From a virus (lineage: Duplodnaviria; Caudoviricetes), in IMG/VR virus record IMGVR_UViG_2917802685_000001, positions 1 through 64,000 of that record: DNA of 64,000 bases; one strand, given 5' to 3'. Of the stretch, positions 26,817 through 64,000 are shown piece by piece (positions within the stretch are counted from its first letter, which is position 1; each line of letters starts with the position of its first letter). The notes under the pieces were generated by a model, which was not told the DNA's origin, made no database searches, and was given only the letters and a program-made list of their open reading frames with translations. The position numbers were made by a program, and so were the translations under genes.

Positions 26817-28259
26817 TCAGGCGGCGCAGGCGAGGGCGTTGCGGCGGACCAGCTCGTCGTAGTCCAGGTCCTCAACGAGCATCAGGTACCGGCCATCTGA
26901 CGCGACGACGAAGTCCTCGACGATCTCGCCGGTCACCGGGTCGATGACCTCGCTGCCCCACCTGCAGCGCCGGTCGACCTCGTCCCCCCGAACGGGGACA
27001 ACGTCGGGCATCCGGCGCTCGCGCATGCGGGGGACGACCATGCCGTGCCAGACCGCACGCTGGTCCTTGTGGGCCTGCTGACGGCGCCAGGAGGTCCCGT
27101 ACGTGCCGATCTCGGCCGCCACGGTGTCCCAGCCCTCCCAGGCTCCTGCGAGGGCCTCAGCGGCCGTCTCAGTGAGTGCCCACAGGCTGTCCTCGCGGGT
27201 CACCAGGCCGTACTCGGCAAGGCGCTTGAGGTGTCGGTACGCGGTCGCCTGGCTGACCATGGCGGTCTGCTGCAGCTCGGCGACGGACTGGGGATCCCGC
27301 AGGTGGAGGGCGGCGAGCATCTTCAGGGAGGAGGCGCCAAGGCCCCGGTGGGCGAAGGCGTCCAGGCCCATCAGGCGCTCGATGACGGCGCCGTCCAGCT
27401 CACCGTTTCTCAGCTCTGACACATTCGACTGTGCCCCCCCAGGCTGCGCCCCCTTGGGGTTGTGTCGCTGGTGAGAACCGTCCTTCAGGTACCAGGTGGA
27501 TCCCTTGTCGGGAGTACCCACCTCGACCAGGTTCAGCCAGCCCCAGAAGACCAGGCGCTTCGAGGCCACGTACGCGGTGCGGGCGGTGCACCCGGCGATC
27601 TCTGCGGCCTCGCGGTGGGACAGGGTGTACATCCGGCCACCGGACTTCTTCGCGGTGTGCCAGTGGGCCATGAGGACCCGCAGAGCGGTCGAACCGGCCA
27701 TGCCGCGCCAGCAGTTGGCGGAGGCGATCGAGTCCCGCAGGGCCACCAGGTCGACCACGGAACCCTGACGGGAGTCGATGACCTGGGTGGTGCTGACGTG
27801 GTGCTGCGCGCGGGTCCAGATCTTGTCCAGGTAGCGCTCGGCGCCCGGCTGGCTCATCTCGCGGACGAACCCACCCGGCCGGGAGGGCCAGTCGATCATG
27901 GCCTCGGAGAACTGGTCCCGGGTCCAGCCGCTGCGGACGGCTCCTGCAGCTACAGCAGCCATGACGGCGTGCTGGTGCTGGGCCTTGATCCGGCTGCTGG
28001 ACGAGGAAGTGGAGGAGCCGTAGCGCTGGCCGGTGTCGCCGTCGACCATCAGCGTCGTCATGTTCGGCGACAGCTGCGGGAAGCGACGGATCCAGTGCTG
28101 CGGGTGAAGAAGGCGGGAAGACGCGCTCGCGGAAGCGGCGGTTCCCTGAATTTTGGCGAGTTTTTCGCCTTGGGTGGCGTGCGGCACGGGTGCGTGGCCC
28201 GTAAACTGGCGTGGCACGGCGGGAGGTGCCCTCTCTATTGGTAGTGGACAAGGGCCCAA
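26817..28259 (-). CDS. Putative plasmid replication initiator with two winged-HTH domains (start uncertain)
   Basis: wHTH-like LSHREAAEIAGCTARTAYVASKRL and SVAELQQTAMVSQATAYRHLKRL; internal copy of the 74-bp element; long non-coding leader. Confidence 0.55.
   Translation of the reverse strand: MGPCPLPIERAPPAVPRQFTGHAPVPHATQGEKLAKIQGTAASASASSRLLHPQHWIRRFPQLSPNMTTLMVDGDTGQRYGSSTSSSSSRIKAQHQHAVMAAVAAGAVRSGWTRDQFSEAMIDWPSRPGGFVREMSQPGAERYLDKIWTRAQHHVSTTQVIDSRQGSVVDLVALRDSIASANCWRGMAGSTALRVLMAHWHTAKKSGGRMYTLSHREAAEIAGCTARTAYVASKRLVFWGWLNLVEVGTPDKGSTWYLKDGSHQRHNPKGAQPGGAQSNVSELRNGELDGAVIERLMGLDAFAHRGLGASSLKMLAALHLRDPQSVAELQQTAMVSQATAYRHLKRLAEYGLVTREDSLWALTETAAEALAGAWEGWDTVAAEIGTYGTSWRRQQAHKDQRAVWHGMVVPRMRERRMPDVVPVRGDEVDRRCRWGSEVIDPVTGEIVEDFVVASDGRYLMLVEDLDYDELVRRNALACAA
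27405..27479. repeat. Second (inverted) copy of the 74-bp element, in the linker between the two HTH domains
   Basis: GTTTCTCAGCTCTGACACATTCGA...TTGTGTCGCTGGTGAGAAC. Confidence 0.75.
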
Positions 28260-29023
28260 CCACCGTGGAGGCGATGGTCAGACCGACTAGGTCGCGTCGT
28301 CTGAGGGACTGGTAATCCCTTGTGGGAAGTGCACTCTTGGCGGAGAGACTCCCACCGGCCCTACGGGCCGCTAAGCGAAGAGGGGCGTCACGGAGATGGA
28401 GGTCTCCGGGCGCCCCTCAAGCCGTTTCTGAGGAAGTCCGTGCATCGTCAGCCCCCTTGGCGGGTTCGGGCACGCCTGTGCCCGGGGGTGGTCTGTGGTG
28501 GTGGCTCCAGGCTGGCGGGCCCGGTACGGAAGACATTGAACATCATCGGGGGCAGAAATGGACAGCCGCCCTCCGAACGGATTGCAGGCGCTGCTCTGTG
28601 GCGGCGTGTCTGCACCTCGGGTCGTGTACACCGAGGGCAGTTTTTGGGTAGGCTGGCTCATGCCAGCGACCTCCTTGGACGTGGATCTTCAAGTGGGTAT
28701 GAGGTTGTTGGCCCCACCGACAGAAGATGACCGGCCAAGGTCTCTGTCGGACGGCCGCCGAGGGATGGGGATCCCGATGACGCGGCCGTTGGTGTTTCTG
28801 GAGCCAGGTGAAGCAGACACGACCCTCGGTGGGCGGAACCGACGATGGTCGCGTGGGTCACCCTAGTACCTCTGTGGTGCCAGATGCACGGACCCTGCGC
28901 ACGAAACCTACAGGCGCGCCCCGCTGACACCCCGTCGGGAAATCCGCCGGAGCAAAAACGCGACTTCGCCGCTGGCCGCTGTGTAGCGTCGCGCACGCCG
29001 CCAGACTTGCCCTGCTCACCGCC

Positions 29024-31168
29024 ATGAGCAGCATCACCACCTTCAAGGGGCCCTCCATGCCGTCCGCTCCGCCTGCGACCTTTTTGTCCCTGCAAGAGCT
29101 GTTCGCCCGCCACCTCCCGGGCTACCGACGCCGTCCGCAGCAGGAGCACCTGGCGCAGGCCATCGAGCTGACGCTGACCCAGGACCTCACCGCGCACGAG
29201 CCCATGCACCTCCTGGCTGAGGCGGGCACCGGCACTGGCAAGTCGTACGCCGCCCTCGTCGCCGCGATCCTCGCCAGCCGCGCCGGGGGAGAGGACGTAC
29301 CCCGCAAGAGGTTCGTCGTCGCCACCGCGACCAACGCCCTCCTGACCCAGTACACAAAAAAAGATCTCCCGTGGCTGGAGGAGGTCCTGGCCGAGGTCGG
29401 CATCGACTTCACCTGGGCCCCGCTCAAGGGCATCGGCAACTTCATCTGCCTGGCCAAGATGGCCGACAGCCCCAAGATCGAGAACCTGCAGGCGCTGCGC
29501 GAGGAGATCGCGCCGGACGAGAACGGCCAGCTCACCCACACCGGCGACCGCGACGACGTCACCACGCCGGTCGACCAGCGCCGCGAGTGGCCGCTGGTGT
29601 CCGCCTCCAGCGACGAGTGCCCCGGCCGGGGGAAGTGCGGGTTCGCCGAGCAGTGCTTCGGCCTGCGGCACAAGGACGCCGCCATGGGCGCCGACATCGT
29701 CGCGACCAACATGGCGGTCCTGCTCACCGACACCAAGATCGCCCGGGAGACCGCCGGGGACGACGGGGAGGGCCCCCGGATCCACGTCCTTCTCGGCGAG
29801 TACGACGGCCTGATCATCGACGAGGCCCACGAGCTGGAGGACCAGGCGACCAGCCACCTCGGGTTCGACATCAAGCAGGGCGGCCTGCTCAAGTGGGCCG
29901 ACCAGGCCATGAGCTTCCTCGCCGTCCACGAGGACGTGGACGAGCAGCGCGCCGGGAAGAGCTTCGACGCCCACCAGGACGTCGTGAACGCCATCGAGGC
30001 CCTGACCCAGCCGATCGCCGACCAGCTGGAGCACGACCAGACCGGCGCCATCGACGCCGACTTCATCGGCTACCACGCCGACCGGTTCGTGGCGCTGTGG
30101 ATGGCGCTCGAAGTCCTGCGCCAGCGCGTGGTCAAGCGGAAGATCGCCGACTCCTCCGACCAGGAGAGGGAGGAGGCCATCCGCAACCGGATCATCACCG
30201 TCGGCCGCAACTTCCTGGCCAACATCAAGGCCGTCATGCTCGCCGACCCCAACGAGATGGTCCGCTGGGCCGAGATGTACGGCAACGAGCGCATGACCAT
30301 CGGCAAGCGCTGGATGATCAAGGCCGCGCCCATCGGCGTCGGCCCCTACCTCCGCGAGGAGCTGTGGAGCCGTTACCCGGCCGTCCTGATGTCCGCCACC
30401 CTCAGCGCGGGTACCGGCGAGCGCCGCTTCGACTACATCGCCCGCCGCCTCGGCCTGAAGGACACCGCCGCCACTCTCGACGTCGGTAGCCCCTTCAACT
30501 ACCGCGCTCAGGCCCTCACCTTCCACCCCGCCGCCGACGTCCCGGCCCCGGCCGGGGAGACCCGAGGCGAATGGGAGACCTGGGTCGCGGCTGCCACCCT
30601 GGCCCTGGTGCGCGCTGCCGGGGGAGGAGCCCTGCTGCTCTACACCTCCCGCAAGGCCATGACCGAGGCATACAACGTCGTCGGCGGCCAGCTGCGTGCC
30701 GACGGCTACGCCACCTTCGTCCAGGGCGGCGACATGAGCGTCAAGGAGATGGCCGAGCGCTTCCGCGCCGACGAGCACAGCGTCCTGTTCGGCTTGAGGT
30801 CCTTCATGACCGGCATGGACTTCCCCGGCAACACCTGCCGCCTCGTCGTCGTCGACAAGCTCCCCTTCGCCGTCCCCAGCGACCCCATCCACAAGGCCCG
30901 CAGCGAGGCCATCGAGCGCCAGGGCGGCAATGCCTTCGCCGACCTGGTCGTGCCGTCCATGACCCTGACCCTCCTGCAGGCGTACGGCCGCCTCATCCGC
31001 AGCGTGGGTGACTCCGGCGTCGTCGCCCTGATGGACCCGCGCCTGGCCAGCAAGGGCTACGGCCGGGGCATCGTCAAGGCTCTCCCGCCCGCGCCCGTCA
31101 CCACGGCACTGGGAGACGTCGTCGGCTTCTACAAGGGATTCCAGGTGGAACTGCCCGCCGCCGCTTGA
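29024..31168 (+). CDS. dinG: DinG-family ATP-dependent helicase (Fe-S); start may be 29057
   Basis: EAGTGTGKS, Cys cluster, IIDEAH, MSATL, GMDFPG and QAYGRLIR motifs. Confidence 0.85.
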   Translation: MSSITTFKGPSMPSAPPATFLSLQELFARHLPGYRRRPQQEHLAQAIELTLTQDLTAHEPMHLLAEAGTGTGKSYAALVAAILASRAGGEDVPRKRFVVATATNALLTQYTKKDLPWLEEVLAEVGIDFTWAPLKGIGNFICLAKMADSPKIENLQALREEIAPDENGQLTHTGDRDDVTTPVDQRREWPLVSASSDECPGRGKCGFAEQCFGLRHKDAAMGADIVATNMAVLLTDTKIARETAGDDGEGPRIHVLLGEYDGLIIDEAHELEDQATSHLGFDIKQGGLLKWADQAMSFLAVHEDVDEQRAGKSFDAHQDVVNAIEALTQPIADQLEHDQTGAIDADFIGYHADRFVALWMALEVLRQRVVKRKIADSSDQEREEAIRNRIITVGRNFLANIKAVMLADPNEMVRWAEMYGNERMTIGKRWMIKAAPIGVGPYLREELWSRYPAVLMSATLSAGTGERRFDYIARRLGLKDTAATLDVGSPFNYRAQALTFHPAADVPAPAGETRGEWETWVAAATLALVRAAGGGALLLYTSRKAMTEAYNVVGGQLRADGYATFVQGGDMSVKEMAERFRADEHSVLFGLRSFMTGMDFPGNTCRLVVVDKLPFAVPSDPIHKARSEAIERQGGNAFADLVVPSMTLTLLQAYGRLIRSVGDSGVVALMDPRLASKGYGRGIVKALPPAPVTTALGDVVGFYKGFQVELPAAA

Positions 31169-34344: not shown

Positions 34345-34391
34345 TCCATCACCGCCCGGCCGCCACCGGGCCCTCATCAAGGACCGCCACC

Positions 34392-39716: not shown

Positions 39717-40457
39717 ATGACGGGACTGCGGATCGCGGGCCGTCCCGAGCACATCATCATCTCCACCAGCACCGCCCTGGCGCTGCGCCCCGCGCCGGTC
39801 GTCCACGACGTCAACGGCTACTACGCCAGGCTCGACGTATCGCCGACCGCGACCAAGCGGGAGATCCGCGAGGCGTACCAGGCCCTTGGCGGCCCCAATG
39901 ACGCCGAGCTGACCGAGATCTTCAAGGTGCTCATCAACCGCGAGAGCCGGGCCGCGTACGACCACAAGCAGCCCGGCAGCACCTTCGTGGACCGGGCGGT
40001 CGTGCAGGCCATTCTGCGCAAGGCAGCCGCCCAAGCCGCCCAGGAGAACGCCGAGTTCGGCACCGGAAGGACCGCCAGAGACATTATTGGAACTCTGGCT
40101 GAGGAGACCGGAAATCCGCTCCTCCAATTTCTTGCTTCGGGTTCCACCGAAGGCTTTGATGATGACGGAGACAGGGACCGCCATCCCCGATCCGACCCCC
40201 CGGCCGCATGGCCGTACTCCTACCTGCTTCTGGCCTCTACCTGCGACGACGTCGACAGGCTGGCTCGGTGGCGGGAAGGGCTCGCGCAGGCCCTGACGGG
40301 CCGTGGTTGCTCCCACTTCGCCGTGGGATTCCACGCCTTCAACGACCTGCCGTTCCTCGTGGTGCGAGACATCGGAATTCCCGTCGTCTTTCTCCACGAA
40401 GAGGCCACGGTGACCGGGGAGTTGATTACGGCAGCCTCCACCGCCGTCGTCGCATAA
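39717..40457 (+). CDS. J-domain-like protein lacking HPD
   Basis: YYARLDVSPTATKREIREAY...IFKVL...RAAYD. Confidence 0.6.
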   Translation: MTGLRIAGRPEHIIISTSTALALRPAPVVHDVNGYYARLDVSPTATKREIREAYQALGGPNDAELTEIFKVLINRESRAAYDHKQPGSTFVDRAVVQAILRKAAAQAAQENAEFGTGRTARDIIGTLAEETGNPLLQFLASGSTEGFDDDGDRDRHPRSDPPAAWPYSYLLLASTCDDVDRLARWREGLAQALTGRGCSHFAVGFHAFNDLPFLVVRDIGIPVVFLHEEATVTGELITAASTAVVA

Positions 40458-41614: not shown

Positions 41615-44600
41615 GTGCTGCGCCTCATCACCTCATACGCCCATGAGCGCTTCCCCGGCGGGACGCACCGTGTCGGCGGCCTGAACATCCACCTTCCCGC
41701 CCTCGTCGAGCACGAAGACGACGGCACCCGCTGGCTGCTCGTTCCCGCTGTCCCGCCCATCATCGTCACACCGCAGACATGGCGCCGCGCGCTGAACGGC
41801 GGCGCGGCCGGAGTCATGGAGGCGTTGCAGGACGGCGTCACTGCCGTCCCGGCGCACATGATCGAAGAGCAGGACATCGACGGCGGCAGGCTGTGCCTCG
41901 CCTACAGCCGTAACGCCATCTTCGGCGACAACGAGGGCATCCCCACCTACCACGAGGTCCTCGACCAGCTCGAAGCCAAGCAGGACCCGCCCAGGGCGGG
42001 CTCCGGGTTCGTGCACCTGCACACCCACAGCGAGTACAGCCCCCTCGACGGCCTGTCCCGCATGGACGAGATCGTCCGCGAGGTCACCTCCCACGGCCAG
42101 GACGCCGTCGCCATCACCGACCACGGCACCTGTGCCGGGCACCCCGAGCTGCAGCGCGCAGCCGACAAGGCCGGGGTCAAGCCGATCTTCGGCATCGAGG
42201 CCAACCTGTGCGACGACCGGCACCTCCGCCGGGTCGAGGACGAAGACGTCCCCGAGGACAGTCCCATGCGGAAGGTCTTCGACGACAAGGGCAACCCCGT
42301 CCCCTTCCGGCGCCAGATCCTGAACAACTACTGGCACCTGTGCCTGTTCGCCATGGACAACACCGGCCTGCGCAACATCTGGGCCGCCTCCACCGAGTCC
42401 TACCGCGACGGCTTCTACGGCCGCCCCCGCATGGACTGGGACACCCTCTCCCGCTTCAACGAGGGCGTCATCGCCTCCACCGGCTGCCTGCGCGGCCCCG
42501 TGGCCGTCGCGCTCAAGAACGGCGACGTCGAGCTGGCCGCTGCCCGCCTCACCCGCCTCATGGACCTCTTCCCGGGCCGCCTGTACGTCGAGCTGCAGCC
42601 CAACGACATGCCCGACCAGGTCCGCCTCAACCAGATCCTCGTGGAGTTCGCCCGCCAGTTCCGCCTGCCACTGCTGGCCACCGTCGACTCCCACTTCCCG
42701 ACGAAGGGCGACGCGCACTCCCACGACGTCTGGATCGCCTGCCAGACCAACAAGGACGTCCAGGACGAAGGCGACCTGTTCGCCGAGGACCTGAACCTCT
42801 ACGTCATGGGAGAGGCCGAGGTTCGCGCCGGACTCGCCTACCTCGGCGAGGACGTCGTCGAGGAGGCCATCGCCAACACCACGGCGCTGGCCGAGCGTTG
42901 CAACGCCCGCATCGAGGGTGAGACCGCGATGCCGTCCTTCACCGGCGATCCGGCCGAGGACGAGCGGCGCCTGCGCGAACTCTGCCAGAACAATTGGGAT
43001 CGCCTGCCCATGAACCAGACCGGGTTCAAGGTGCCGACCTCGCTGCAACAGGAGTATCTCGACCGCTTCCGCCGCGAGATGGATCTGCTCGTCACGAAGG
43101 GCTTCTGCGGCTACTACCTGATGGTCGCGGATTACGTCGGCTGGGCCAAGGACCACGGCATCCTCGTCGGCCCCGGGCGCGGCTCCGGCGGTGGCTCCCT
43201 CGTCGCCTACCTCGCCCGCATCACCAGCCTCGACCCGGTCAAGCATGACCTCCTCTTCGAGCGCTTCCTGACCATGGGCCGTGCCGGGTTGCCGGACTTC
43301 GACGTCGACTTCCCCGCCTCGAAGAAGGCCGAGATCCTCGGCTACCTCCGCGAGCGCTGGGGCGAGCGCAACGTCGTCTCCATCGGCTCCGAACTGCGCC
43401 TGAAGAACAAGGCCGTCATCAACGAGCTGGTCCGCGCGCTGGCCTCCTCCCTGCCGGAGAACGCCGCCGCCGACCTGCGCCAGGTCTCCGCCCTGATCGA
43501 CGAGGCCGAAGCGGGCACCGCCGGACTCGGCATGTCCTGGGAGGACCTCTGGATCCAGCACGGCGAGCAGCTCCAGCCGTTCGCCGACCGCTACCCCGAG
43601 CTGTTCGCCATGGCAGAGCGCCTGGTCGGCCGCCTGAAGTCCTACGGCCGCCACGCGGCCGGTGTGGTTATCTCCACCGGCGCCCCGCTCACCGACTGGC
43701 TGCCGATGCGCACCATCGACGGCGAAGAGCAGATGGTGACGCAGTGGGCCATGAACGACGTCGAGGCGATCGGCCTGGTCAAGTTCGACATCTTGACCTT
43801 GAGGACCTTGGACACCATCCAGGAGACCCTCGACCTGGTCCGCGAGCAGCGCCGGTACGAGATCGACCTGGAGGCGTGGGAGGTCGAGTTCGAGGATCCC
43901 CTGGTCTGGGACGAGCTGCAGGCCGCCCACACCCTCGGCGTCTTCCAGATCGAGACCCACTCCGGCACCCGCCTGTGCGAGCGCATGCGGCCCAAGAACG
44001 TCGCCGAACTTGCCGACATGGTCACCATCGTCCGGCCCGGCCCGATGAACTCCGGCCTGACCGACCTCTACTTGCGCCGCCGCGCGGGCGAGCAGGCCGT
44101 CTCCTACCCCGACCCCCGCCTGGAGCAGGTCCTGGCGCCCACCTACGGCGCGATGATCTACCAGGAGCAGGTCATGGCCGTCACCCAGCTCCTCGCCGGG
44201 TACGACGAATCCGAGGCCGACGGCGTCCGCCGCATCCTCGGCAAGAAGAAGGTCAGCGCCATCGCCGACGCCGGGCAGGAGTTCCTCTCCCGCGTCGACA
44301 TGCCCCGCGAGCAGGCCGAGCGCCTGTGGTCCCAGATGGCCGAGTTCAGCAAATACGGCTTCAACAAGTCCCACGCCTACGCGTACGCGTTCCTCGCGTT
44401 CTGGACCGCGTTCCTCAAGGTCAACTACCCCCGCGAGTTCCTCGTCGCCGCCATGTCCACCGTCGACAAGGACCGCGTCCCGGAGTTCGTGAAGGAGGCC
44501 CGGCGCCTGGACGTCGAGGTCCTCCCGCCGGACATCAACACCTCCGGTCCCGGCTTCACCGCCGACCCCGAGCTGTACGCCGTCCGCTACGGCCTCGGCT

Positions 44601-46516: not shown

Positions 46517-46591
46517 GCTGCGAAATCGAGCCAACCGCCATTGGCCACAGCTGACCGCCATCAGCTACTCCCTGCAAGGAGACCCCGCACC

Positions 46592-53070: not shown

Positions 53071-53133
53071 AAAACTCCGGTCCGCCACCCGGAAACCACC
53101 ACCACTCCTTCCGCCAGAGGAGAACAGCCCGTC

Positions 53134-54126
53134 ATGCACCTCCGCGAGCCCTCAACCACCACACTCGCCGACCTCGACCGCGCCTGGAAGAACCGCGACC
53201 GCGAGTGGACCTCCGACGCCTGCGTCCCCTCCGTCGACTTCCCCCAGGCCCCCGGCGTCGAGCCGACCATCCTCCTCGGCGACCACGAGATCACCCTGGA
53301 CGAGAAGGCCATCGAGCTGCTGTGCGCCTTCTACCAGGTCCCCACCGCGTACTTCCGGCGCATCACCGCCGAAGAGCGGCACTACGTGATGAACATGCGG
53401 ATGACCCACGCCCTGGGCGAGGTGACGATCACCTACAACGACCGAGGCCTCACCGACGTCCGCAAGCCGACCAAGCCCCGCCTGGAGGCCGAGGAGTTCG
53501 TCCGCATCGCCCACCGGCTCTACCCGGCCTCCTCCACCGTGCTGGACGCCTGGGTCACCGCCGACGAGCTGCGCCTGGACGTCCTGGGCCGCCACGCCGA
53601 GGACGGCGTCTGGGGAGGACTGCGCTTCGGCCAGAACCGTAAGCAGAACCTCGCCCCCACCGTGACCCCCATCCTCTTCCACGAGGACACCACCACGGTG
53701 ATCGAGATCCCCGACCCCTCCCTGAAGATCGACGCACGCGGCGTCTCCATCGACAAGATCGGCGAACGTCTCGCCGCCGAGGCCCTGCGCGCCGACGCCC
53801 GCCTGTACAAGGACGCCGAGCACCTGCTGGGCCTGGTCAACAGCTCCATCGCCGGGGACCGCATCATCCGCCTGCACCGCATCGCTGCCGAGCACAAGAT
53901 GCCCGTCCGGCCGCTCGCCGACATCACCGTCGCGCTCTCCCGCAACGACCAGCCGACCCTGCTCGACATGGTGCTGGCCATCGCCAACACGGCCAACGCC
54001 CCCAAGATCCTGCAGGACCCCGACAAGCGGAAGCTGCGCACCACCCTCCAGGCCATCGCCGGAGCCGTCGTGGTCGACGAAGCCGAACGCTGCATCTCCT
54101 GCCACGCCCTCGTCGCCGCCGCCTGA
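53134..54126 (+). CDS. Hypothetical protein
   Basis: 330 aa, RBS AGGAG; C-terminal CxxC. Confidence 0.7.
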   Translation: MHLREPSTTTLADLDRAWKNRDREWTSDACVPSVDFPQAPGVEPTILLGDHEITLDEKAIELLCAFYQVPTAYFRRITAEERHYVMNMRMTHALGEVTITYNDRGLTDVRKPTKPRLEAEEFVRIAHRLYPASSTVLDAWVTADELRLDVLGRHAEDGVWGGLRFGQNRKQNLAPTVTPILFHEDTTTVIEIPDPSLKIDARGVSIDKIGERLAAEALRADARLYKDAEHLLGLVNSSIAGDRIIRLHRIAAEHKMPVRPLADITVALSRNDQPTLLDMVLAIANTANAPKILQDPDKRKLRTTLQAIAGAVVVDEAERCISCHALVAAA

Positions 54127-54786: not shown

Positions 54787-54817
54787 CCACCCCCTCTCCT
54801 TCCGCCAGAGGAGCACC

Positions 54818-55297
54818 ATGACCGCCAGCAACCCGTCCGGCCTGATCCTGCCGCCGGGCGTCCAGTCCTCCAGCCCGTTCGGGCCCGCCGCCGACCGCTT
54901 CGACAAGGAGTACGGCGGCGTCCACCAGCGCAGCGAGCTGGCCCAGGGCGACATCCTCGACAGCGAGATCCTTGCGCTGGAGGCGATCTTCAAGGACATG
55001 CAGGACCGCTACGGCGTCCGCTCCTTCAACGTCACGGAGTTCGAGCGCGAGGCCAAGGACCGCTGCCACGACCAGCTCGGCCTCGCCATCGACATCCGCT
55101 GGAAGGCCCTCGCCGACGGCACCGGCCGCATCATCGAGGGCGCCGCCAGCCCCGAGATCGAGATCGTCGGCCGCGTCCAGAAGAAGGCGTTCGACCACGA
55201 CCACAAGGTCCACGAGGTCACCCGCGACATCCTCGACCTCGGCACCCAGGGCGTCATCGCCTCCGAGGAGCCCGCGCGCGGAGGACACCCCCACTGA
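54818..55297 (+). CDS. Hypothetical protein
   Basis: ATG at 54818 after AGGAG. Confidence 0.65.
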   Translation: MTASNPSGLILPPGVQSSSPFGPAADRFDKEYGGVHQRSELAQGDILDSEILALEAIFKDMQDRYGVRSFNVTEFEREAKDRCHDQLGLAIDIRWKALADGTGRIIEGAASPEIEIVGRVQKKAFDHDHKVHEVTRDILDLGTQGVIASEEPARGGHPH

Positions 55298-56269: not shown

Positions 56270-58471
56270 ATGATCAGCAAGAACAACGAGGACACCTCGC
56301 CCCTGGCGAACTTTGATCCCACGGAGATTCACCAGCTGTTCCTGGGATTGGAGGTGCCCGATCCGATTACGTTCGTGGTCTCGCCGAGGTATCTGAACCG
56401 GCCAAACCTCTACCCGCGCCAGGCCACCCTCATGAAGGTGTTCTTCCTGCGCGAGGACCTCTTCACCGACTACGACTACCGGGTCGTCGCCGAGTGGGAC
56501 GAGTCCTACCGCACCGCCAAGTCCTCCAACGAACAGCGGGCCGCGCGCGCCGCTGAACTCGCCGAGACCAGCCCCGAAGCCGCCCTCGAAGCCGAGGTCG
56601 ACGGCATCATGACCGAGGCCCTCGACGCCATCGCCGCCCAGGCCCTGCTGGAGGGCAACGAGGACGCCCCCAAGATGCCCCTGTCCGGCTCCCCGGACCT
56701 CCTGGGCCGCATGCGCGCCTGCAAGGCTCTCGGCTACAGCTGGTTCAAAGAGATCCTCCTGGTCATGGGCCGCCGCGCAGGCAAGGGCCACATCAGCGCC
56801 CTGGCCATGGCCTACGTCCTGTGGTGCTACATGGCCAAGGGCGACCCCCAGGAGTTCTACGGCGTCGACCGCGACAAGAAGCTCGCCGTGCTGATCTTCG
56901 CCGGTAAGCGCGACCAGGCCAAACAGAACCTGTGGCGCGACCTCGTCAACGTCGTCACCGGCGGCCCGTGTTTCGCCCCCTACATCGCCGACAGCCTCGG
57001 CGAGAAGCTCTCCGTCTACGCGCCGAACGACTTCGTCCGCATGGAAGACATGCGCAAGCGCGGCATCAAGACCGCCATGGACATGGCCACCTTCCACATC
57101 CTGCCCAAGGAATCCACCGTCATGGCGGGCCGTGGCCCGGCCTCCATGATCCTCGGCTTCGACGAGATGGCCCACGTCGTCAACAGCGGCGCCAACCGCT
57201 CCGCCGGAGAGGTCTACGACGCCTCCACCCCCTCCCTCGACCAGTTCGGCAGAGACGGCTTCATCGTCGAGCCCAGCTCGCCGTGGGAGATGAGCGGCAA
57301 GTTCTACGACAACTGGCTGCGCGCCACCAGCTACGAGGACGACGGCACCCCCACCTACGCGAACGTCATGATGATCCAGCTCCCCAGCTGGGACGTCTAC
57401 CTCGACTGGCAGATCGCCCACGAACTGCCCCTCTTCCCCGAGGGCTTCACCGGCGACAACGGCGAGTACGCCGACTGCGACCCGCCCGGCTTCAAGCCCC
57501 TCAAGGGCGCCATCCAGAACTTCGACGAAGAGATGCGCAAGCTGGAGAAGGCCGACCCCGACACCTTCGCCGTCGAGCGCCGCGCCCAGTGGGCCACCGT
57601 CCTGGACGCCTACCTCAATCCGGACAAGGTCGAATCCGTCTTCGGCCCCTGGCACGAGCGCCCCGTCGAATACGGCAGCCCGCTCATCCTGCCCACCACC
57701 CAGGGCATCCTCGCCTACACCTACAAGGGCCACGCCGACCCCAGCTCCGTCAACTGCCGCTTCGGCGTCGCCCTCGCCCACACAGAGATCGACGCCGAGG
57801 GCCGCCCCCACGTCGTCTTCGACAAGATCCACTACTTCGATCCGGCCGACTTCCCGAACCACACCATCGACTACGAGGAAGTCGAGGACTGGATCTGGCA
57901 CGACATGATCGTCCCCTTCAGCCCCGACGACTTCACCTTCGACCAGTACCAGTCGGTCGGATCCATCCAGTCACTCGTCAAGCGGACCGCCAAGACGCGC
58001 CTGCCCAAGAAGGTCAACATCTGGGAGCGCACCGCCACCAACCAGATCAACTGGCGCTACGCCGAGACCTTCAAGGCCGCGATCAACATGGGCCTGGTCC
58101 ACGCGCCCGAGCACGAAGAGGGCATGCTGGAGCTGAAGTTCCTCCAGAAGAAGCCCGGCATCAACCGCGTCGATCACCCCACCATCGGTCCCGTCCAGAC
58201 CAAGGACATCGCCGATGCGATCATGATCACAACGTTCGCGCTCATCGGTGACTGGATCGAGGGCTACAAGGAGATGCTCAACGGCGCCAGGCCCGCTGGC
58301 GCCATGGTGGGTGGCCTGCACGGATCCAGCGCCCGCACCCCCGACATGGCCATGCCTGACCAGGACACACAGGCCCGCCTGAACGCCCTGCGCAGCTTCA
58401 CCCGCACCCGTACAGGACGCCAGGGCTGGGATCAAGGCCTCGGCCGCACAAGGTCCGGATATCGCCGCTGA
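56270..58471 (+). CDS. terL: Terminase large subunit
   Basis: YPRQ, MGRRAGKG (Walker A), ILGFDEMAH (Walker B), SSP; nuclease HADPS, TFDQY, KDIADA. Confidence 0.85.
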   Translation: MISKNNEDTSPLANFDPTEIHQLFLGLEVPDPITFVVSPRYLNRPNLYPRQATLMKVFFLREDLFTDYDYRVVAEWDESYRTAKSSNEQRAARAAELAETSPEAALEAEVDGIMTEALDAIAAQALLEGNEDAPKMPLSGSPDLLGRMRACKALGYSWFKEILLVMGRRAGKGHISALAMAYVLWCYMAKGDPQEFYGVDRDKKLAVLIFAGKRDQAKQNLWRDLVNVVTGGPCFAPYIADSLGEKLSVYAPNDFVRMEDMRKRGIKTAMDMATFHILPKESTVMAGRGPASMILGFDEMAHVVNSGANRSAGEVYDASTPSLDQFGRDGFIVEPSSPWEMSGKFYDNWLRATSYEDDGTPTYANVMMIQLPSWDVYLDWQIAHELPLFPEGFTGDNGEYADCDPPGFKPLKGAIQNFDEEMRKLEKADPDTFAVERRAQWATVLDAYLNPDKVESVFGPWHERPVEYGSPLILPTTQGILAYTYKGHADPSSVNCRFGVALAHTEIDAEGRPHVVFDKIHYFDPADFPNHTIDYEEVEDWIWHDMIVPFSPDDFTFDQYQSVGSIQSLVKRTAKTRLPKKVNIWERTATNQINWRYAETFKAAINMGLVHAPEHEEGMLELKFLQKKPGINRVDHPTIGPVQTKDIADAIMITTFALIGDWIEGYKEMLNGARPAGAMVGGLHGSSARTPDMAMPDQDTQARLNALRSFTRTRTGRQGWDQGLGRTRSGYRR

Positions 58472-58522
58472 CCTGGAATGGCTGCCTTGCCCACGAGGAA
58501 AACTCCGTGGCACGATGGCGTC

Positions 58523-58691
58523 GTCTCGTGAATGGGTTGCAGCCAGGGGTCCTTTCGGCCCGGGAACAACTGCAGCTGGCAGGCGTGCCTCAACGTGCCA
58601 CCCGGCGCCAGACCGATCAGGTCGGCCGGATGGCGCCGGGGTGTGGTGGAGTCTGGCGGGACTGACCACTACTTAAAACGTCTCACGAGAC
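58523..58691 (+). ncRNA. Candidate ~170-nt multi-stem structured RNA (strand not proven)
   Basis: TTGCCC-N18-CACGAT promoter-like site at 58487-58516; closing stem GTCTCGTGA/TCACGAGAC; four internal helices; downstream hairpin. Confidence 0.55.
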
Positions 58692-58698
58692 ACGAGAT

Positions 58699-58730
58699 GC
58701 CCCCCGGACAGGTACCGCCGGGGGGCTCTC
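58699..58730 (+). terminator. Hairpin after the candidate ncRNA
   Basis: GCCCCCCGG 58699-58707 / CCGGGGGGC 58718-58726. Confidence 0.55.
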
Positions 58731-58739
58731 CCATTCCCA

Positions 58740-58783
58740 TGTCCACCAGCTCTTCACCGACGTGAAGGGCTGGAGGTGCAGGG
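58740..58783 (+). promoter_or_regulatory. Late-gene motif (variant) with hairpin over the RBS
   Basis: TGTCC at 58740, AAGGGCTGG at 58765; CCAGCTCTTCA/TGAAGGGCTGG arms. Confidence 0.55.
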
Positions 58784-61471
58784 ATGACGGACATCAGCGC
58801 GACCAGCTTCTTCCGCCAGGCGGGCGTCGCCGACGGCGGCATCGACTTCGACCACGAAGAGACCGACACCGGCAGCTCGATCTGGCCGACCAGGATCAAG
58901 CTCAAGGCCCTGCACCCCGAGACCGGCGAGGAGATGGGCTTCCTCGACTACCAGGTGCCCCGCCGCAAGACCAACAAGATCACCGTCCATGAGCTGAAGA
59001 CCCACGAGGACTACCAGCGCAAGGGCGTCGGCTCCGCCCTCATGGACGAGATGCAGCGCCGCCACCCCGGCACGCCTGTAGATCACGGCGACCGCACCCC
59101 CGCCGGTAAGGCGTGGTGGAAGGGCTACACCGACGGCAAGAAGGTCACCCGGGGCCGAACCATGGCCACCCGCACGACGGCCGCCGCCCCGGAGACCTTC
59201 GCGCGCGGCGACGGCGAGGATTGGCTGGCGCACCGCCAGCGCGTCCGCCACGGCCTGTCCACGGGCCGCATCTCCTACCCGCAGGCCCGCGAGCACGGCT
59301 ACGACGGCGATGCGCGAGAGGACACCCGCGACAGCTGGACCGGACAGCACACCGAAGGCAAGGGCTGGCAGCCCCTGCCCCACCAGCTCTACCACACCAC
59401 CACCGACGCCGCCGGAGTCGCCGCCCACGGCCTGCGCAGCGGCGGAGAACTCGGTCAGGACAGGGGCCACGGTCTCGGCGGCACCCCCGAGTGGCTGTCC
59501 CTGACCGACCACCACGACAACGCCCACAACATGCTCGATGCGATGCACGAGTACCACGCCCACCTCAACGGCAAGACCAGCTTCCCTGACCTCCACCGAG
59601 CGGCCGAGAGCGGAGAGGGCGCCCAGCAGCCCTTCCACAAGCCCTTCGTGGACGGCATCTCGGAGATGTACAACGAGCACCACCGAGACTCGCTGATGCG
59701 GGGGAAGCGCATCGAGCCCGGCTTCGCCACCTACGACGAGGCCAAGGAGAAGGGCTGGACGCCACACCCGACCCTCCACAAGGACTTCGGCGAGGACAAG
59801 CACGGCCGCCACATCGGCACCGGCTGGGAGCGCGACTCCAACCTCGAAGAGCGCCACGACGAGTACGGAGCCTTCTCCCGCGCCCGCCAGTTCTCCGGCA
59901 ACGGCAAGCCCTCCGTGCTGTTCACCAGCAACGACCGCCGGGCGTTCGCCGACAAGGACCCCAGGAACTTCGCCGTCCTCCACGTCCGCCCCCGCCCCGG
60001 CGGCCACGGCTTCCCCGGCGGCGACAAGCACGAGTGGCGCACCGGCAGCGGCGACGCCGTTGAGGTCCACGGCGAGCCCATCCGCCGTCAGGCCCTACGC
60101 GTCACGGCGGCCGTCCAGGACGGCGACGACATCCCGTCCCGCCTCCTCAACCCCCACGGCCACCACGTCCGCGCCCGGGTCGAGGGCAACACGAACGTTG
60201 AGATGGTCCCGCGCCACGAGGTCGAGCGCTACGCCAGCCAGCCGACCGACGACGCGCACACCAAGGAGGTCGGCACCCACGTCGCCACCAGCGGCGAGAT
60301 GGAGCCCCTCCTCCTGCACTACCACCCCGCCAGCGGTGAGGCCTACCTCGGCGAGGGCAACCACCGCTTGCGCGCCGCCAAGGCCCTGGGTATGGACCAC
60401 GTCCCCCTGCGCGTGAGCCGCTCCAGCTACGGCCTGCCCGGCCCCGGCGTGAAGGTCCCCCAGGACCACCCCGCCATCGCGGCAGGCGGCCACGTCCCGG
60501 CCGACATCTACCCCAGCCACATCGGCCTCACCGCAGTGGACAAGCCCGCCATCCCGGAGGGTGACCTGCGCAGCGCCAGGAACGACTACAACCTCACCGG
60601 CCGCCCCCGCCTGGCGGCAGCCGACACCCCCGTGCCGGACAACACCCAGCCGTACCAGCACGAGCACGACTGGCTTCCCCACGGCCACTTCTTCGGCCCC
60701 GGGAAGAAGGGCCTGGACCCGCGCCTGTTCGACGAGAACGACCGGATGCACCCGATCGTCCGCCAGCACCTGCTGTCTCTGCTCAACGCCTTCTGGACCC
60801 CGAAGTACGGCGACTCCTGGCAGTCCTGGGCCCGCGTCTACCTCACCGGCTCCGAGGCCTCCCACTGGTACGGCAACGGCGACCTCGACGTCCTCATCGG
60901 CATTGACCACGAGGCCCTCAACCACCACGTCGACCACTTCACCGGCGAGCCGGACGACGCGGTCGACGAGCGCCTCACCAACGAGCTGCGCGAGGGCCTC
61001 AACGACGACCACCGGATGTTCCCCGGCCCGGACGGCAAGGACACCGGCCCCTGGGAGTCGACCTTCTACGTCAACCCGGGCTCGTACGACATCCGCGACC
61101 TCAAGCCCTACGCCGCCTACGACATCACCCGCGACGAGTGGGCCGTCAAGCCGGTCGAGGTCCCCGACGACTTCGGGCCCGAGAAGCTCCCCGAGTCCAC
61201 CTGGGACGTCCTCGACGCGCTGCAGAAGCTCATCGGCGCCATCCAGGAGCTGCCCGCCGGAACCCGGGAGCGCGAGGGCGCCGCGCTGTACGATTACCTC
61301 CACGCTGACCGCCACAGCGCTTTCGGCCCCGAGGGATCGGGCCTCTATGACCCTGCCAACGCTGTCTGGAAGGCCCTCGACAAGGCCCCCGGCAAGCCGC
61401 TGCAGCAGCTCATCGACTGGAAACACGCCCACGACGGGACCGCCGCCACGGACCTGGAGACCGCAGCATGA
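58784..61471 (+). CDS. Polyvalent protein 1: GNAT + ART-like + ParB/Srx-like + nucleotidyltransferase
   Basis: YQRKGVGSALM; LYHTT..GL..WLSLT..HEW; GEGNHRLRAA; LTGSEAS..DLDVLI. Confidence 0.75.
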   Translation: MTDISATSFFRQAGVADGGIDFDHEETDTGSSIWPTRIKLKALHPETGEEMGFLDYQVPRRKTNKITVHELKTHEDYQRKGVGSALMDEMQRRHPGTPVDHGDRTPAGKAWWKGYTDGKKVTRGRTMATRTTAAAPETFARGDGEDWLAHRQRVRHGLSTGRISYPQAREHGYDGDAREDTRDSWTGQHTEGKGWQPLPHQLYHTTTDAAGVAAHGLRSGGELGQDRGHGLGGTPEWLSLTDHHDNAHNMLDAMHEYHAHLNGKTSFPDLHRAAESGEGAQQPFHKPFVDGISEMYNEHHRDSLMRGKRIEPGFATYDEAKEKGWTPHPTLHKDFGEDKHGRHIGTGWERDSNLEERHDEYGAFSRARQFSGNGKPSVLFTSNDRRAFADKDPRNFAVLHVRPRPGGHGFPGGDKHEWRTGSGDAVEVHGEPIRRQALRVTAAVQDGDDIPSRLLNPHGHHVRARVEGNTNVEMVPRHEVERYASQPTDDAHTKEVGTHVATSGEMEPLLLHYHPASGEAYLGEGNHRLRAAKALGMDHVPLRVSRSSYGLPGPGVKVPQDHPAIAAGGHVPADIYPSHIGLTAVDKPAIPEGDLRSARNDYNLTGRPRLAAADTPVPDNTQPYQHEHDWLPHGHFFGPGKKGLDPRLFDENDRMHPIVRQHLLSLLNAFWTPKYGDSWQSWARVYLTGSEASHWYGNGDLDVLIGIDHEALNHHVDHFTGEPDDAVDERLTNELREGLNDDHRMFPGPDGKDTGPWESTFYVNPGSYDIRDLKPYAAYDITRDEWAVKPVEVPDDFGPEKLPESTWDVLDALQKLIGAIQELPAGTREREGAALYDYLHADRHSAFGPEGSGLYDPANAVWKALDKAPGKPLQQLIDWKHAHDGTAATDLETAA

Positions 61472-63954
61472 CCGAGTTCAACGCCGTCGCCCACTTCCGC
61501 CAGGCTGCCTGGTCCGACGAGGAAGGCCTGTCCGACAAGACCCGGGCCGCCGTCGACCGGGCCGAGGGCGACTGGCACACCCACCGGCAGTACCTCGCCG
61601 AAGACCACATGAACAAGCAACTGGACCCGGAGACCAACCGGCTCGCCCACCAGGGCCACGCCCAGCGCACCGCCAACAAGATCACCGACGCCGAGGGCCT
61701 GCCCCCCGTCAAGGTCCTCGTCCACGACTCACCGAACGTCGCCGGGCGCGGCACAGCCCACGACGGCAGCCCGGTCATCGCGCTCGGCGAGAACACCCTG
61801 AAGCACACCACCCTCATCCACGAGCTGACGCACCACATGCGCCAGCCCCACGAGGACGACCCCGACCACAACGCGGGCGGCTTCTACGGCGACTACATCG
61901 GCATGCTGCAGCGCCACCACCCCGACCCCGACGCGTACGTGCACATGATGGACGCCAACAAGCTCGCCGTGGCCCACATGCGCGCCCACCCCGGCAACTT
62001 CCCACCCCGGACCGCGAGTGCGGCCTACGATGCCCCAGAAGGAGGCAGCCATGGATCCGAACGAGCAGGACGAGACGATGGACCCCGAGGTCGAAGCGGA
62101 GATCCTGCAGAGGCACGACACTCCCGGGGAGCGCAGCACGGTCAGCGTGAACGAGCTGCGGCACCGGGCCGCCGTGTCCGCGCAGCAGCAGGCGTAGAGC
62201 GCCACCCCGAGCTGCAGGGCGACCTCGACCGCCTCGGCGGAGGCGCCCGCCACGTCCAGGAGACCATCGACGCCCTGCACCACGGCGGCTCCGGCGGCGC
62301 CGTCACCTACCCGCTCTCGCACCCGCTGGAGGGCTGGCACGCAGCCCTCACCAGCGGCGGCCACCAGGTCGTGCACCGGCACGACGGCGAAACCCTCCAC
62401 GTCGGCTACGCCGGACACAACATCGCCGACGCCGAGCAGCGCCTGGGCGCCAGCAACGGAAACGGCTCCCTGCCGGTGGAGTTCCACAAGGGCGCCGAGA
62501 AAGACTTCGACGGCCTCCACCCCGAGGTCCAGGAGAAGGCCCTCAACACCATCGACCGCCTCGCACGCGGCGAGCAGCACAAGTACGACCACGCCCTCAA
62601 CGGCGGACAATGGGAGAGCGGCGGCTGGCGATCGGCCCGCGCCGACTTCCTGCACCGCGTCACCCACCGCTTCGAGGACGCCGACGGCAACCCCACTCCT
62701 CCCGAGCGCGCGGCCCGGCTGTTCGTCGGCCACATTGGCCCGCACAACTACGGCGACGCCGCCAAGCGCCTCTCCAGCCTGACCGGCTTCTTCCGGCAGG
62801 CCAGCCTGCCGCAGGAGTGGTACCACGGCTCCGGGGCCGTCTTCGACCGCTTCGATCCGAGCAAGGACAAGACCGTCCAGGACGAGAGCGCCGAGCCCAA
62901 GCACTGGAACAGCCACCTCGGCTCCCACTTCTCCAGCGACCACCGCGTCGCCCAGGAGTTCGCCCAGCGCCAGGGCGGCGGCCACGTCTACCACGTCCAG
63001 CTCAACCTGCAGAACCCCAAGCACTACGAGTCCGAGCACGACCTGGACAAGGAAGCTGTCCTGTGGGCTCACCACAACGGCCACGACATGGGGCCGTCGG
63101 TGAGCAAACCGGCCTACCGCGAGCACATCGAGCCGGACGAGTGGCAGTTCTTCCCCAAGTACGACGACCACGGCGACCCCCGGCCGAACACCCAAGAGAT
63201 CGCCCACGGCTTCCGTGACCACCTCAAGGCCCAGGGGCACGACGGCATCACCTACGGCAACGAGTTCGAGGGCGCCCACAACGGCTTCCACGCCGGAGAA
63301 CGGCACCTCAGCGCTATCGCCTTCCACCCTGACCAGGTCACCATCACGCAGCGGCACAGAGGCAACGAGCCCCACACCGCCGCCCTGCAACTGACCGAGG
63401 CCGAAAACCGTCTGCTGCAGCGTCAGGCGGCGGCCGTCGAGAACGGCAGTGGCGTGATGGTTGCGTTCGTCCCGCCGCACGAGGTGGCAGAGCAACTCGC
63501 CCTGCACGGCGGCCAATTGGTCGATGACCTGCACATCACCCTGGCGTACCTGGGCAATGTGGCCGACTACACCAAAGAGCAGCTGACACTGCTGCCGCAA
63601 TTGGTTTCGGCCTGGGCAATGAGGCAAAAGGCAGTTACGATCCACATCGGAGGCGTTGGAACGTTCAACAACGCCTACAAAGACCAGCACGTCCTGTGGG
63701 CGCACCCCGACATACCCGGTGGGGTGCAGATGCACGTCAGCCTGGCTGACTACCTGGAACGGTACGGGTACCGTCTTCCCAGTGAGCACGGCTGGACGGC
63801 CCATATGACGCTGCAATACGTCGACCGGCACAAGCGGTTCATGCCGCAGCTGCCAGAAGTCGGCTGGGAGGCGACCGAGGTGGTCACCTTTGTCGGAGCG
63901 GCTCGCCACGCCGCGCGCCTCGGCCTCCGTCCCAGCACACCCACCACGCTCTAG
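61468..63954 (+). CDS. Polyvalent protein 2: zincin + two RelE/ParE-like + ART-PolyVal-like + 2H phosphoesterase
   Basis: HELTH; VEFHKGAEKDF..HRVTHRF..HIGPH; WYHGS..HFS..LQNP..GHDGI; LHITL...AHMTL. Confidence 0.75.
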   Translation: MTEFNAVAHFRQAAWSDEEGLSDKTRAAVDRAEGDWHTHRQYLAEDHMNKQLDPETNRLAHQGHAQRTANKITDAEGLPPVKVLVHDSPNVAGRGTAHDGSPVIALGENTLKHTTLIHELTHHMRQPHEDDPDHNAGGFYGDYIGMLQRHHPDPDAYVHMMDANKLAVAHMRAHPGNFPPRTASAAYDAPEGGSHGSERAGRDDGPRGRSGDPAEARHSRGAQHGQRERAAAPGRRVRAAAGVERHPELQGDLDRLGGGARHVQETIDALHHGGSGGAVTYPLSHPLEGWHAALTSGGHQVVHRHDGETLHVGYAGHNIADAEQRLGASNGNGSLPVEFHKGAEKDFDGLHPEVQEKALNTIDRLARGEQHKYDHALNGGQWESGGWRSARADFLHRVTHRFEDADGNPTPPERAARLFVGHIGPHNYGDAAKRLSSLTGFFRQASLPQEWYHGSGAVFDRFDPSKDKTVQDESAEPKHWNSHLGSHFSSDHRVAQEFAQRQGGGHVYHVQLNLQNPKHYESEHDLDKEAVLWAHHNGHDMGPSVSKPAYREHIEPDEWQFFPKYDDHGDPRPNTQEIAHGFRDHLKAQGHDGITYGNEFEGAHNGFHAGERHLSAIAFHPDQVTITQRHRGNEPHTAALQLTEAENRLLQRQAAAVENGSGVMVAFVPPHEVAEQLALHGGQLVDDLHITLAYLGNVADYTKEQLTLLPQLVSAWAMRQKAVTIHIGGVGTFNNAYKDQHVLWAHPDIPGGVQMHVSLADYLERYGYRLPSEHGWTAHMTLQYVDRHKRFMPQLPEVGWEATEVVTFVGAARHAARLGLRPSTPTTL
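62051..62197 (+). CDS. Nested +1-frame 48-aa ORF, putative antitoxin
   Basis: GAAGGAGG RBS at 62038-62045; MDPNEQDETMDPEVEAEILQRHDTPGERSTVSVNELRHRAAVSAQQQA; ends where the first RelE-like domain starts. Confidence 0.6.
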   Translation: MDPNEQDETMDPEVEAEILQRHDTPGERSTVSVNELRHRAAVSAQQQA

Positions 63955-64000
63955 AGTCCCGCCAGACCGGAGCAGTCAGGAGAACGCTCAAGTGAGCACC

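Follow-up and report, generated by a model that had tools for sequence, protein, structure and literature searches.

Sequence conservation points to a structured non-coding RNA downstream of terL in 155-kb phages, with an invariant loop complementary to a motif in the phages' gene leaders

The DNA analysed here, hereafter the window, comprises the first 64 kb of a viral record of 154,158 bp that has a G+C content of 69% and is estimated to be 99% complete. The ORF at 56270-58471 matches phrog_2 and encodes the large terminase (terL); the closest terL proteins of cultured phages belong to Gordonia, Rhodococcus and Mycobacterium cluster-C-like myophages and are ~30% identical to it. The next ORF (58784-61471) encodes an 895-aa polyvalent protein, and both it and the ORF that follows belong to the polyvalent enzyme proteins. 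Between terL and this next ORF there are 312 non-coding bases, and it is here that the RNA element described below is located (Table 1). One relative of this phage, G003, has the same sequence as a 156,949-bp contig, bearing terminal repeats, in the assembly of Streptomyces sp. MH60, a correspondence reached through a pattern match (L207), which makes Streptomyces the most likely host group.

Table 1. Positions in the window of the predicted RNA, its helices and flanking signals, and candidate target leaders
Feature	Position	Strand	Remarks
Promoter-like box	58487..58516	+	TTGCCC 58487-92, 18-nt spacer, TGG-CACGAT (58511-16), extended -10-like
Structured RNA core	58519..58696	+	covariance model R1, 160 positions, 44 pairs
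P1 closing stem	58523-31 with 58683-91	+	both-side changes in 7/9 pairs
P2 hairpin	58536-42 with 58570-76	+	3 compensatory pairs
P1b	GGCGU 58582-86 with ACGUC 58678-82	+	RNAalifold; MFE of 7/9 homologues
P3 long hairpin	58587..58642	+	P3a 58587-90/58639-42, P3c 58602-06/58625-29, P3d 58611-14/58620-23
P4 hairpin	58643..58672	+	P4a 58643-49/58666-72 (GUGGUGG/CCACUAC), P4b 58651-53/58660-62 (GUC/GAC), loop UGGCGG 58654-59
GC hairpin, 9 bp	58699..58726	+	candidate 3' end/terminator of the RNA
SD-overlapping hairpin (GGAGG)	58742..58783	+	next gene starts at ATG 58784
Candidate target UGCUCA-CCGCCA-UGAGCA	29013..29030	+	leader of DinG-like helicase gene (29057)
Candidate target GCCCGG-CCGCCA-CCGGGC	34354..34371	+	before DnaC/IstB-like gene (34392)
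Candidate target AGCUGA-CCGCCA-UCAGCU	46549..46566	+	before RecA-like gene (46592)
Candidate target CUCCUU-CCGCCA-GAGGAG	53105..53122	+	SD in 3' arm, gene at 53134
Candidate target CUCCUU-CCGCCA-GAGGAG	54796..54813	+	same hairpin as 53105-22; gene at 54818
Candidate target GUCCCGCCAGACC	63955..63967	+	13-nt perfect complement of 58651-63, -28.9 kcal/mol

An initial annotation, made from the letters of this DNA alone, had described a structured RNA after terL, and the features on which it was built (the TTGCCC-N18-CACGAT box, the closing stem, the P2 helix, the P4 hairpin and the GC hairpin) are all present in the sequence. The fold that it drew is reproduced by single-sequence minimum free energy prediction, with a z score of -5.0 on the + strand relative to shuffled sequences. 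A covariance model of the core, R1, matches its own locus with 156.9 bits, and this is the sole strong match in the 154-kb genome. We collected 11 distinct homologues, all in related 155-kb phage contigs: nine were recovered via loci with a similar terL, and two more divergent ones, L346 (terL 76% identical, 57.7 bits) and L347/G157 (terL 74% identical, 36.9 bits), came from a profile search.

The structural conservation in relatives that the first reading implied is borne out by these 11 homologues: the structure accounts for paired bases in 92-93% of pair cells, and for 33-45% when the partners are slid as a control. In a MAFFT alignment, on which we imposed a structure that we had derived ourselves, the values are 92.2% against 34-45%, and nine pairs show compensatory changes as opposed to at most one after sliding. 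In an alignment of the 11 sequences fitted to the model, the values are 92.9% against 33-42%; here compensatory changes are seen at 22/44 pairs against at most five in the slid controls, numbers to be read with the knowledge that such an alignment leans towards its model.

The homologues range in length from 142 to 194 nt, the length differences are not multiples of three, and most of the sequences have stop codons in all frames with no conserved ORF; the locus is therefore not protein-coding. The minus strand of the element also folds (z = -4.35). Among the curated covarying helices there are 56 G-U pairs and 4 A-C pairs (92% canonical when read on the + strand, 79% on the - strand), and among pairs predicted on both strands there are 10 G-U and 0 A-C. 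This excess of G-U over A-C marks the + strand as the functional strand.

Comparison with known families, which the initial annotation had recommended, returned no assignment. None of the 4227 models of Rfam 15, among them those for riboswitches, 6S, 6C, pRNA, Y RNA and tmRNA, reached its gathering score anywhere in the window, and the C4 model gave nothing up to an E value of 10 over 58300-58900; the best sub-threshold match was to sbcD RNA, at 17.4 bits relative to a gathering score of 40. ARAGORN found no tRNA or tmRNA within the element, a DNA search against 50,697 phage records produced no match, and a covariance-model search of 150 other Streptomyces genomes revealed no copy. A scan of IMG/VR for the loop together with the CUUAAAACG box recovered the known clade and, beyond it, a single chance match in a low-GC phage. 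A relaxed pattern applied to metagenome and genome contigs gave chance matches among the matches listed, with L207 alone being useful. On the strength of the covariation and base-pair composition, we conclude that the core is a genuine structured non-coding RNA, read from the + strand, of a family new to the catalogues.

The conserved fold retains three of the five helices originally proposed (the closing stem, P2 and P4), and the other two, a GGCA-GGCG-UGCC hairpin and a perfect 10-bp helix, are single-sequence solutions that the comparative data replace with P1b and P3. The most divergent homologue by terL identity, L347, has P1 fully flipped to GUCUCACG/CGUGAGAC. P1b extends P1 into the junction and is part of the invariant CUUAAAACGUC (58672-82); because it is nearly invariant, it comes without covariation evidence. 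In P2 it is the distal part that is variable, with the length of the hairpin differing by 17-48 nt among relatives. Compensatory pairs are distributed along P3, with three in P3a, four in P3c and two in P3d, and in per-sequence folds its middle segment covaries between GUGCC/GGCAC and GCGCU/AGCGC. The tip formed by P3d reads GACC-GAUCA-GGUC in this genome, and GACC-GAnnA-GGUC is conserved among relatives. The junction sequences CUUAAAACGUC and GGCGUGCC are both invariant.

The element is flanked by signals that may define a transcript. The promoter-like box, which is single-copy in the genome, is preserved in all relatives as two conserved blocks around a spacer of variable sequence and fixed length, so that the initial identification of this box is upheld as far as its presence and conservation are concerned, but it fails a scan for the sigma-70 consensus. 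As a putative promoter it would set +1 near 58523. On the 3' side, the stem of the GC hairpin covaries (CCCCCCGG/CCGGGGGG, CCCCCGGG/CCCGGGGG and CCUCCCGG/CCGGGAGG), and there is no U-tract after it. Given the negative sigma-70 scan and the lack of a U-tract, we can only infer that the RNA is transcribed independently, with 5' and 3' ends of its own. We also considered a minus-strand terminator-like match at 58697-58681, which was set aside since its flank is not conserved, and a pairing of the P4 loop with a CCGCC carried by the loop of the GC hairpin, which was dropped as relatives have CCACC there.

The hairpin that overlaps the SD sequence of the next gene is kept in all relatives, including L014, which does not have the RNA, and it is therefore part of the leader of the downstream gene rather than of the RNA module. 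In L014/G001, 36 nt separate terL from this same gene and the element is absent. The R1 model finds no copy anywhere in the complete genomes G001 and G002, and a search of the same two genomes for remnants of the RNA's conserved boxes found none. From these comparisons, the RNA element behaves as an insertable module.

The segment of the RNA that stands out for its conservation is the loop of P4. UGGCGGG is invariant in 11/11 homologues, which span 74% to 100% terL identity, while the stems vary, and the loop is predicted to be exposed in 7/9 homologues. Its hexamer UGGCGG is the exact complement of CCGCCA, a word that is abundant ahead of the genes of this phage. With genes called by GC3 frame bias and all hexamers counted across the 45 nt upstream of each start codon, CCGCCA is present in 35/182 leader windows versus 5.3% of coding windows (p = 3e-10), making it the top leader word after SD words and the -10 box. 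It begins at a median of 27 nt before the start codon, and the median gap to the SD sequence is 7 nt, with a gap of 0-1 nt in 52/174 sites.

Leader copies of CCGCCA are also predicted to be accessible. Their predicted unpaired probability is 0.69-0.72, compared with 0.46-0.47 for copies in coding sequence (p ~1e-7 in each of three genomes), and 41-51% of leader sites lie in loops closed by stems of at least 4 bp. In this genome the motif is often an exact hexaloop on a 6-7-bp stem, with the SD sequence within the 3' arm. When orthologous leaders of G003 and G004 were compared, the motif was kept in 18/23, as opposed to 6/59 for motif-less leaders, and it was kept even where flanks or exact position had changed. 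Several of the candidate targets in Table 1 illustrate this. At 53105-53122 the motif forms an exact hexaloop with an unpaired probability of 0.96 and persists in the orthologues from G003 and G004; at 29013-29030, ahead of a gene in which helicase domains were found, it sits on a 7-bp stem with an unpaired probability of 1.0, and the hairpin is conserved in both relatives; and at 46549-46566 the same relatives keep the motif at a shifted position with diverged flanks.

The predicted contacts between loop and leaders differ in length. Pairing of the core loop with the motif amounts to only 6 bp and -9.9 kcal/mol, and for the leaders at 53105-22 and 54796-813 the predicted duplex with the RNA loop extends to 10 bp and -18.2 kcal/mol, in agreement with the ~10-nt pairing that had been noticed near 53109 and 54800. 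The 13-nt complementarity to 63955-63967 that was likewise pointed out is exact and is located 25 nt before a GTG at 63992; in relatives this site retains the CCGCCA core only, so that the 13-nt extension is specific to this genome. Chance alone predicts roughly one 14-mer match with up to two mismatches per window, and the 13-nt complementarity is not significant by itself. When loop flanks were swapped between RNAs, the leaders of G003 and G004 preferred the flank of their own RNA and the leaders of G000 did not, a comparison that is confounded by SD-like purines. What the RNA and the leaders have in common with base-pairing sRNA systems is a conserved, accessible seed complementary to conserved, accessible leader sites, the accessibility being that predicted from folding.

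The enrichment of CCGCCA in leaders follows the distribution of the RNA. It is 3.6x in G000, 5.1x in G005, 3.7x in G003, 3.5x in G004 and 4.1x in G157, all of which bear the RNA (p from 1e-7 to 1e-13), and 0-1.6x, with no significant value, in seven genomes in which the model detects no RNA (G001, G002, G158, G160, G161, G162 and G163). In 223 kb of host chromosome from Streptomyces sp. MH60, CCGCCA is found in 2/198 leaders and is not enriched. In 4/5 RNA-bearing genomes it is the top non-SD leader hexamer, and in the fifth, G000, only the TAGAGT promoter box ranks above it. Since the RNA-bearing genomes, with terL identities of 74% or more, all fall within a single clade, the joint presence of RNA and motif represents one evolutionary event.

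Relatives that do not have the RNA possess leader motifs of their own: CCCUGCCA(A) in G001, where it too is presented in hairpin loops and some of these sequester the SD sequence; CCGCACYGGAGG in G161, where it is found in 37 leaders; and GCCAGAG in G162. Private leader motifs thus appear to be a general habit of this phage group. A search for an RNA cognate to the motifs of G001, G161 and G162 found none; in the search of G001 for a UGGCAGG-bearing RNA, the best-looking site, at 42226, lies within an XRE-like gene (by-eye translation) and the others were ambiguous. Motifs of this kind may therefore have a reader other than an antisense RNA.

We propose, and give an even chance to, a model in which the RNA is a multi-target regulator that acts through loop-loop contacts, pairing in trans with the leaders of ~35 of the phage's genes to co-regulate, and probably repress, their translation. 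The gap after terL would constitute a separate RNA module, with what appear to be its own promoter-like box and GC-rich 3' hairpin, that yields a + strand non-coding RNA of ~170 nt in which the P1/P1b closing stem bears the arms P2, P3 and P4. The P4 loop, UGGCGG(G), would pair in trans with CCGCCA in leaders to form a kissing contact of 6-10 bp, and the ~35 targets, all genes of the phage itself, would include the DinG-like helicase, DnaC-like loader and RecA-like genes. The most likely effect of binding beside the SD sequence, or on a hairpin of which the SD forms the 3' arm, is that the ribosome-binding site would be blocked or locked, and the outcome would be that the whole gene set is translationally repressed together. 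Activation by the opening of SD-sequestering hairpins is the less likely direction.

The alternative that survives best is that the RNA is real but has some other role, for example as a protein-binding scaffold, an enzyme or a structural component, and that the match between loop and motif is coincidental, with a phage protein or some other factor as the reader of the motif, as must be the case for the different motifs of RNA-free relatives. The four-arm architecture goes well beyond what an sRNA needs for presenting a seed, as do the invariant junctions, and together these suggest that the RNA does more than present a seed; the existence of lineage-specific leader motifs in G001, G161 and G162 with no detectable cognate RNA points the same way, and only a single phylogenetic transition ties the RNA to its motif. 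Yet the hexamer in the invariant loop is exactly complementary to the word that ranks first among non-SD leader hexamers in four of five RNA-bearing genomes, and both partners are predicted to be displayed in loops. We estimate the probability of such a match by chance at ~0.01-0.02, counting ~15 conserved unpaired hexamers and a few top motifs among 4096 words. A different role with a coincidental loop is, in our assessment, unlikely, but the most probable of the alternatives.

We regard as improbable a second alternative, in which the RNA is a cis-acting leader of the gene for the 895-aa polyvalent protein, either a riboswitch-like attenuator or an element of put-like antitermination, that governs read-through of the hairpin at 58699-58726. 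The order of features at the locus (structured RNA, GC hairpin, SD hairpin, gene) resembles that of an attenuator. However, L014/G001 have the same downstream gene directly after terL with the element absent, a by-eye look at the 3' part of the RNA revealed no alternative pairing with the hairpin, the hairpin is without a U-tract, and the element matches no riboswitch family.

The initial annotation had listed two further possibilities. According to one, a leftward transcript would act as a decoy, its GUC-CCGCCA-GAC hairpin mimicking the leaders and titrating whatever binds them; P4 in reverse complement forms a perfect hexaloop hairpin of the leader type and, as noted above, the minus strand folds well, but the preponderance of G-U over A-C pairs, both in the covarying helices and among the pairs predicted on both strands, disfavours this orientation, the neighbouring genes, promoter-like box and 3' hairpin are all oriented in the + direction, and the minus-strand terminator-like match is not conserved, so that we attach very little credence to it. 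According to the other, least credible of all, the adjacency to terL and size of ~170 nt would reflect a packaging RNA that acts with the terminase or portal like the pRNA of phi29, but there is no Rfam pRNA match, a pair of mutually complementary 8-nt sequences present in this genome (CGCCAGAC/GUCUGGCG) is lost in L004 and others, and complete relatives with a homologous terL, including those with the same terL-to-next-gene junction, are without the RNA.

Returning to the multi-target regulator, its likeness to known phage RNAs is partial. The P1/P7 c4 and P4 CI RNAs are also phage-encoded structured RNAs that act in trans, with loops that pair with leader boxes near the RBS (PMC12197685), a pairing that in our case is predicted. 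Phage regulatory RNAs have been reviewed with c4 RNA as the loop-based antisense prototype and nothing comparable given for actinophages, and neither a kissing-loop regulon nor any regulatory RNA of mycobacteriophages or Streptomyces phages is listed in the review (PMC12197685). The differences from c4 and CI are considerable. There is no Rfam C4 match, the RNA described here is ~170 nt long with four arms (as against ~70-77 nt), it lies between terL and a polyvalent-protein gene rather than in an immunity operon, where RNAs of the C4 kind are encoded ahead of their target and matured by RNase P, and its ~35 candidate targets are dispersed, as opposed to one or two sites in one operon; they are replication and other genes rather than an ant-type operon. 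In the initial annotation this RNA was seen as a multi-target regulator or an immunity RNA by analogy with P1 C4 and P4 CI. The conserved + strand RNA, with its invariant loop complementary to an enriched and accessible motif, makes the first half of that proposal plausible; the analogy to lysogeny immunity finds no support, there being no Rfam match and no immI-like context.

Actinobacteria are without Hfq, and the action of loop-seed sRNAs is plausible there, as the S. aureus RNAIII/Rsa RNAs and the actinobacterial 6C RNA are Hfq-independent and have loop seeds that pair with many leaders near the SD sequence. The phage RNA resembles this group in having a short conserved hairpin-loop seed directed at many leaders near the SD. 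It differs in that their seeds are C-rich and pair with the G-rich SD itself, whereas here a G-rich seed would pair with a C-rich motif upstream of the SD, in that it is phage-encoded with the phage's own genes as candidate targets, and, from 6C in particular, in having no Rfam 6C match. With ColE1 RNA I/RNA II and R1 CopA/CopT it would share initiation by loop-loop contact through fully complementary loops of 6-7 nt, although each of those RNAs is encoded in cis and has full complementarity to one target, and the complementarity here is 6-10 nt (13 nt in one instance) to many unlinked targets. As a functional analogue, T4 RegA is also one phage factor that recognizes a short signal near many phage start sites and co-regulates their translation, as we propose here; RegA is a protein, and the factor proposed here is an RNA with a private motif upstream of the SD. 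The phage regulatory RNAs known so far have one or a few target sites, or are directed at host genes, and no phage is known to have an RNA that controls, as a master regulator, a translational regulon spanning the whole virus.

More tentatively, with a probability that we would place well short of even, the data can be fitted to a broader picture in which these ~155-kb actinophages use private leader codes just upstream of the SD sequence (CCGCCA, CCCUGCCA and CCGCACYGGAGG), with the CCGCCA code being read by a dedicated structured RNA through hexaloop kissing, such that ~35 genes, replication genes included, are switched as a block. If the pairing is real, the RNA would co-regulate dozens of the phage's own genes via a private leader signal in an Hfq-less host group, and it would offer a handle on why large actinophages have lineage-specific motifs before their ribosome-binding sites. 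Whatever its function, the element adds a new and well-supported structured RNA family to the catalogues.

Elsewhere in the window, a highly conserved structured non-coding region occupies 28255-28655, in the interval that separates the helicase gene from a divergent wHTH gene. It contains two sites that read UGGCGG on the + strand and CCGCCA on the - strand and that are kept in 5/5 sequences, and a third that is kept in 3/5, with UCGGCGG in its place in G003 and G004; G001 instead has four copies of UGGCAGG in its orthologous region, matching the leader motif of G001 itself. The consensus energy is -123.7 on the + strand versus -85.8 on the - strand, the z scores relative to shuffled sequences are -1.28 and -3.88, respectively, and two comparisons of shared pairs gave G-U:A-C ratios of 8:3 and 4:5. 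Rightward transcription would make the region a second anti-leader RNA with real cross-clade covariation; under leftward transcription, its sites would simply be further leader hairpins.

The non-coding stretch between the divergent wHTH gene and the DinG-like helicase gene carries, if read on its plus strand, the same loop sequence as the structured RNA that follows terL (the terL RNA). Two hairpin sites within it, reading UGGCGG on the plus strand and CCGCCA on the minus strand, are kept in 5/5 sequences, and a third site of this kind is kept in three of the five. The region also contains a GACC-GAnnA-GGUC hairpin that resembles the tip of P3 in the terL RNA, GACC-GAUCA-GGUC. Its ortholog in G001, a related phage genome in which no terL RNA was found, has four copies of UGGCAGG in place of UGGCGG. 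The minus-strand ORF that overlaps the region is probably non-coding, judging from its sequence: GC3 is low (about 71% by our own count), and indels among relatives break the frame.

Each of three relatives in which the RNA was not found, G001, G161 and G162 (loci L282-289, L394-401 and L410-415), has a separate leader motif, located directly 5' of the Shine-Dalgarno sequence (SD). These are CCCUGCCA(A) in G001 (CTGCCA in 15 leaders, 12.5x), CCGCACYGGAGG in G161 (37 leaders, 7.9x) and GCCAGAG in G162 (13-14 leaders).

Past the window end, many of the transcripts predicted for a family of near-identical promoters have (C)CCGCC(A/G) close to the -10 box, within about 10-25 nt. A conserved intergenic site elsewhere in the genome is similar when read on its minus strand, where what resembles a -10-type box is followed by CCCGCCAGAC, as in the TAGAGT promoters.

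Features of the regions discussed (window coordinates unless marked as genome)
Feature	Position	Strand	Remarks
wHTH gene	26817-28217	-	divergent; flanks the structured region
Structured non-coding region	28255-28655	both	highly conserved; between the wHTH and DinG-like genes
96-aa ORF	28371-28661	-	conserved GGAGG-N7-ATG start, found in G001 too
Hairpin plus U5	~28615-28650	+	within the structured region
Hairpin that overlaps the SD of the gene starting at 58784	58742-58783		conserved even in L014, which is without the terL RNA
UUCCGCCAGG, encoding F-R-Q-A	58807-58818 and 61491-61502		about 30 nt past the start codon of both polyvalent-protein genes
Promoter, about 20 near-identical copies	genome 64,845-116,467, past window end	+	TTGACA or TAGACA, then palindrome GCAAC-N4-GTTGC, then TAGAGT-GGG
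Intergenic UCUGGCGGG(G)UGACAUAUUCUCACC	genome 145,860-145,930, outside window; G003 40,340-40,400	+	conserved

Both polyvalent-protein genes downstream of the terL RNA contain UUCCGCCAGG, a complement of the RNA loop; the match may be a coincidence arising from the encoded protein motif, or a dual use of the sequence.

One phage of the clade that carries the terL RNA (L207/G003) is present in the genome assembly of Streptomyces sp. MH60 as a free contig of 156,949 bp that has direct repeats at its ends, and its presence there points to Streptomyces as the host and to a source that can be cultured. Finally, the 96-nt tRNA-Asp called by ARAGORN at 29488-29583 on the minus strand lies inside the DinG-like ORF and is probably a false positive.
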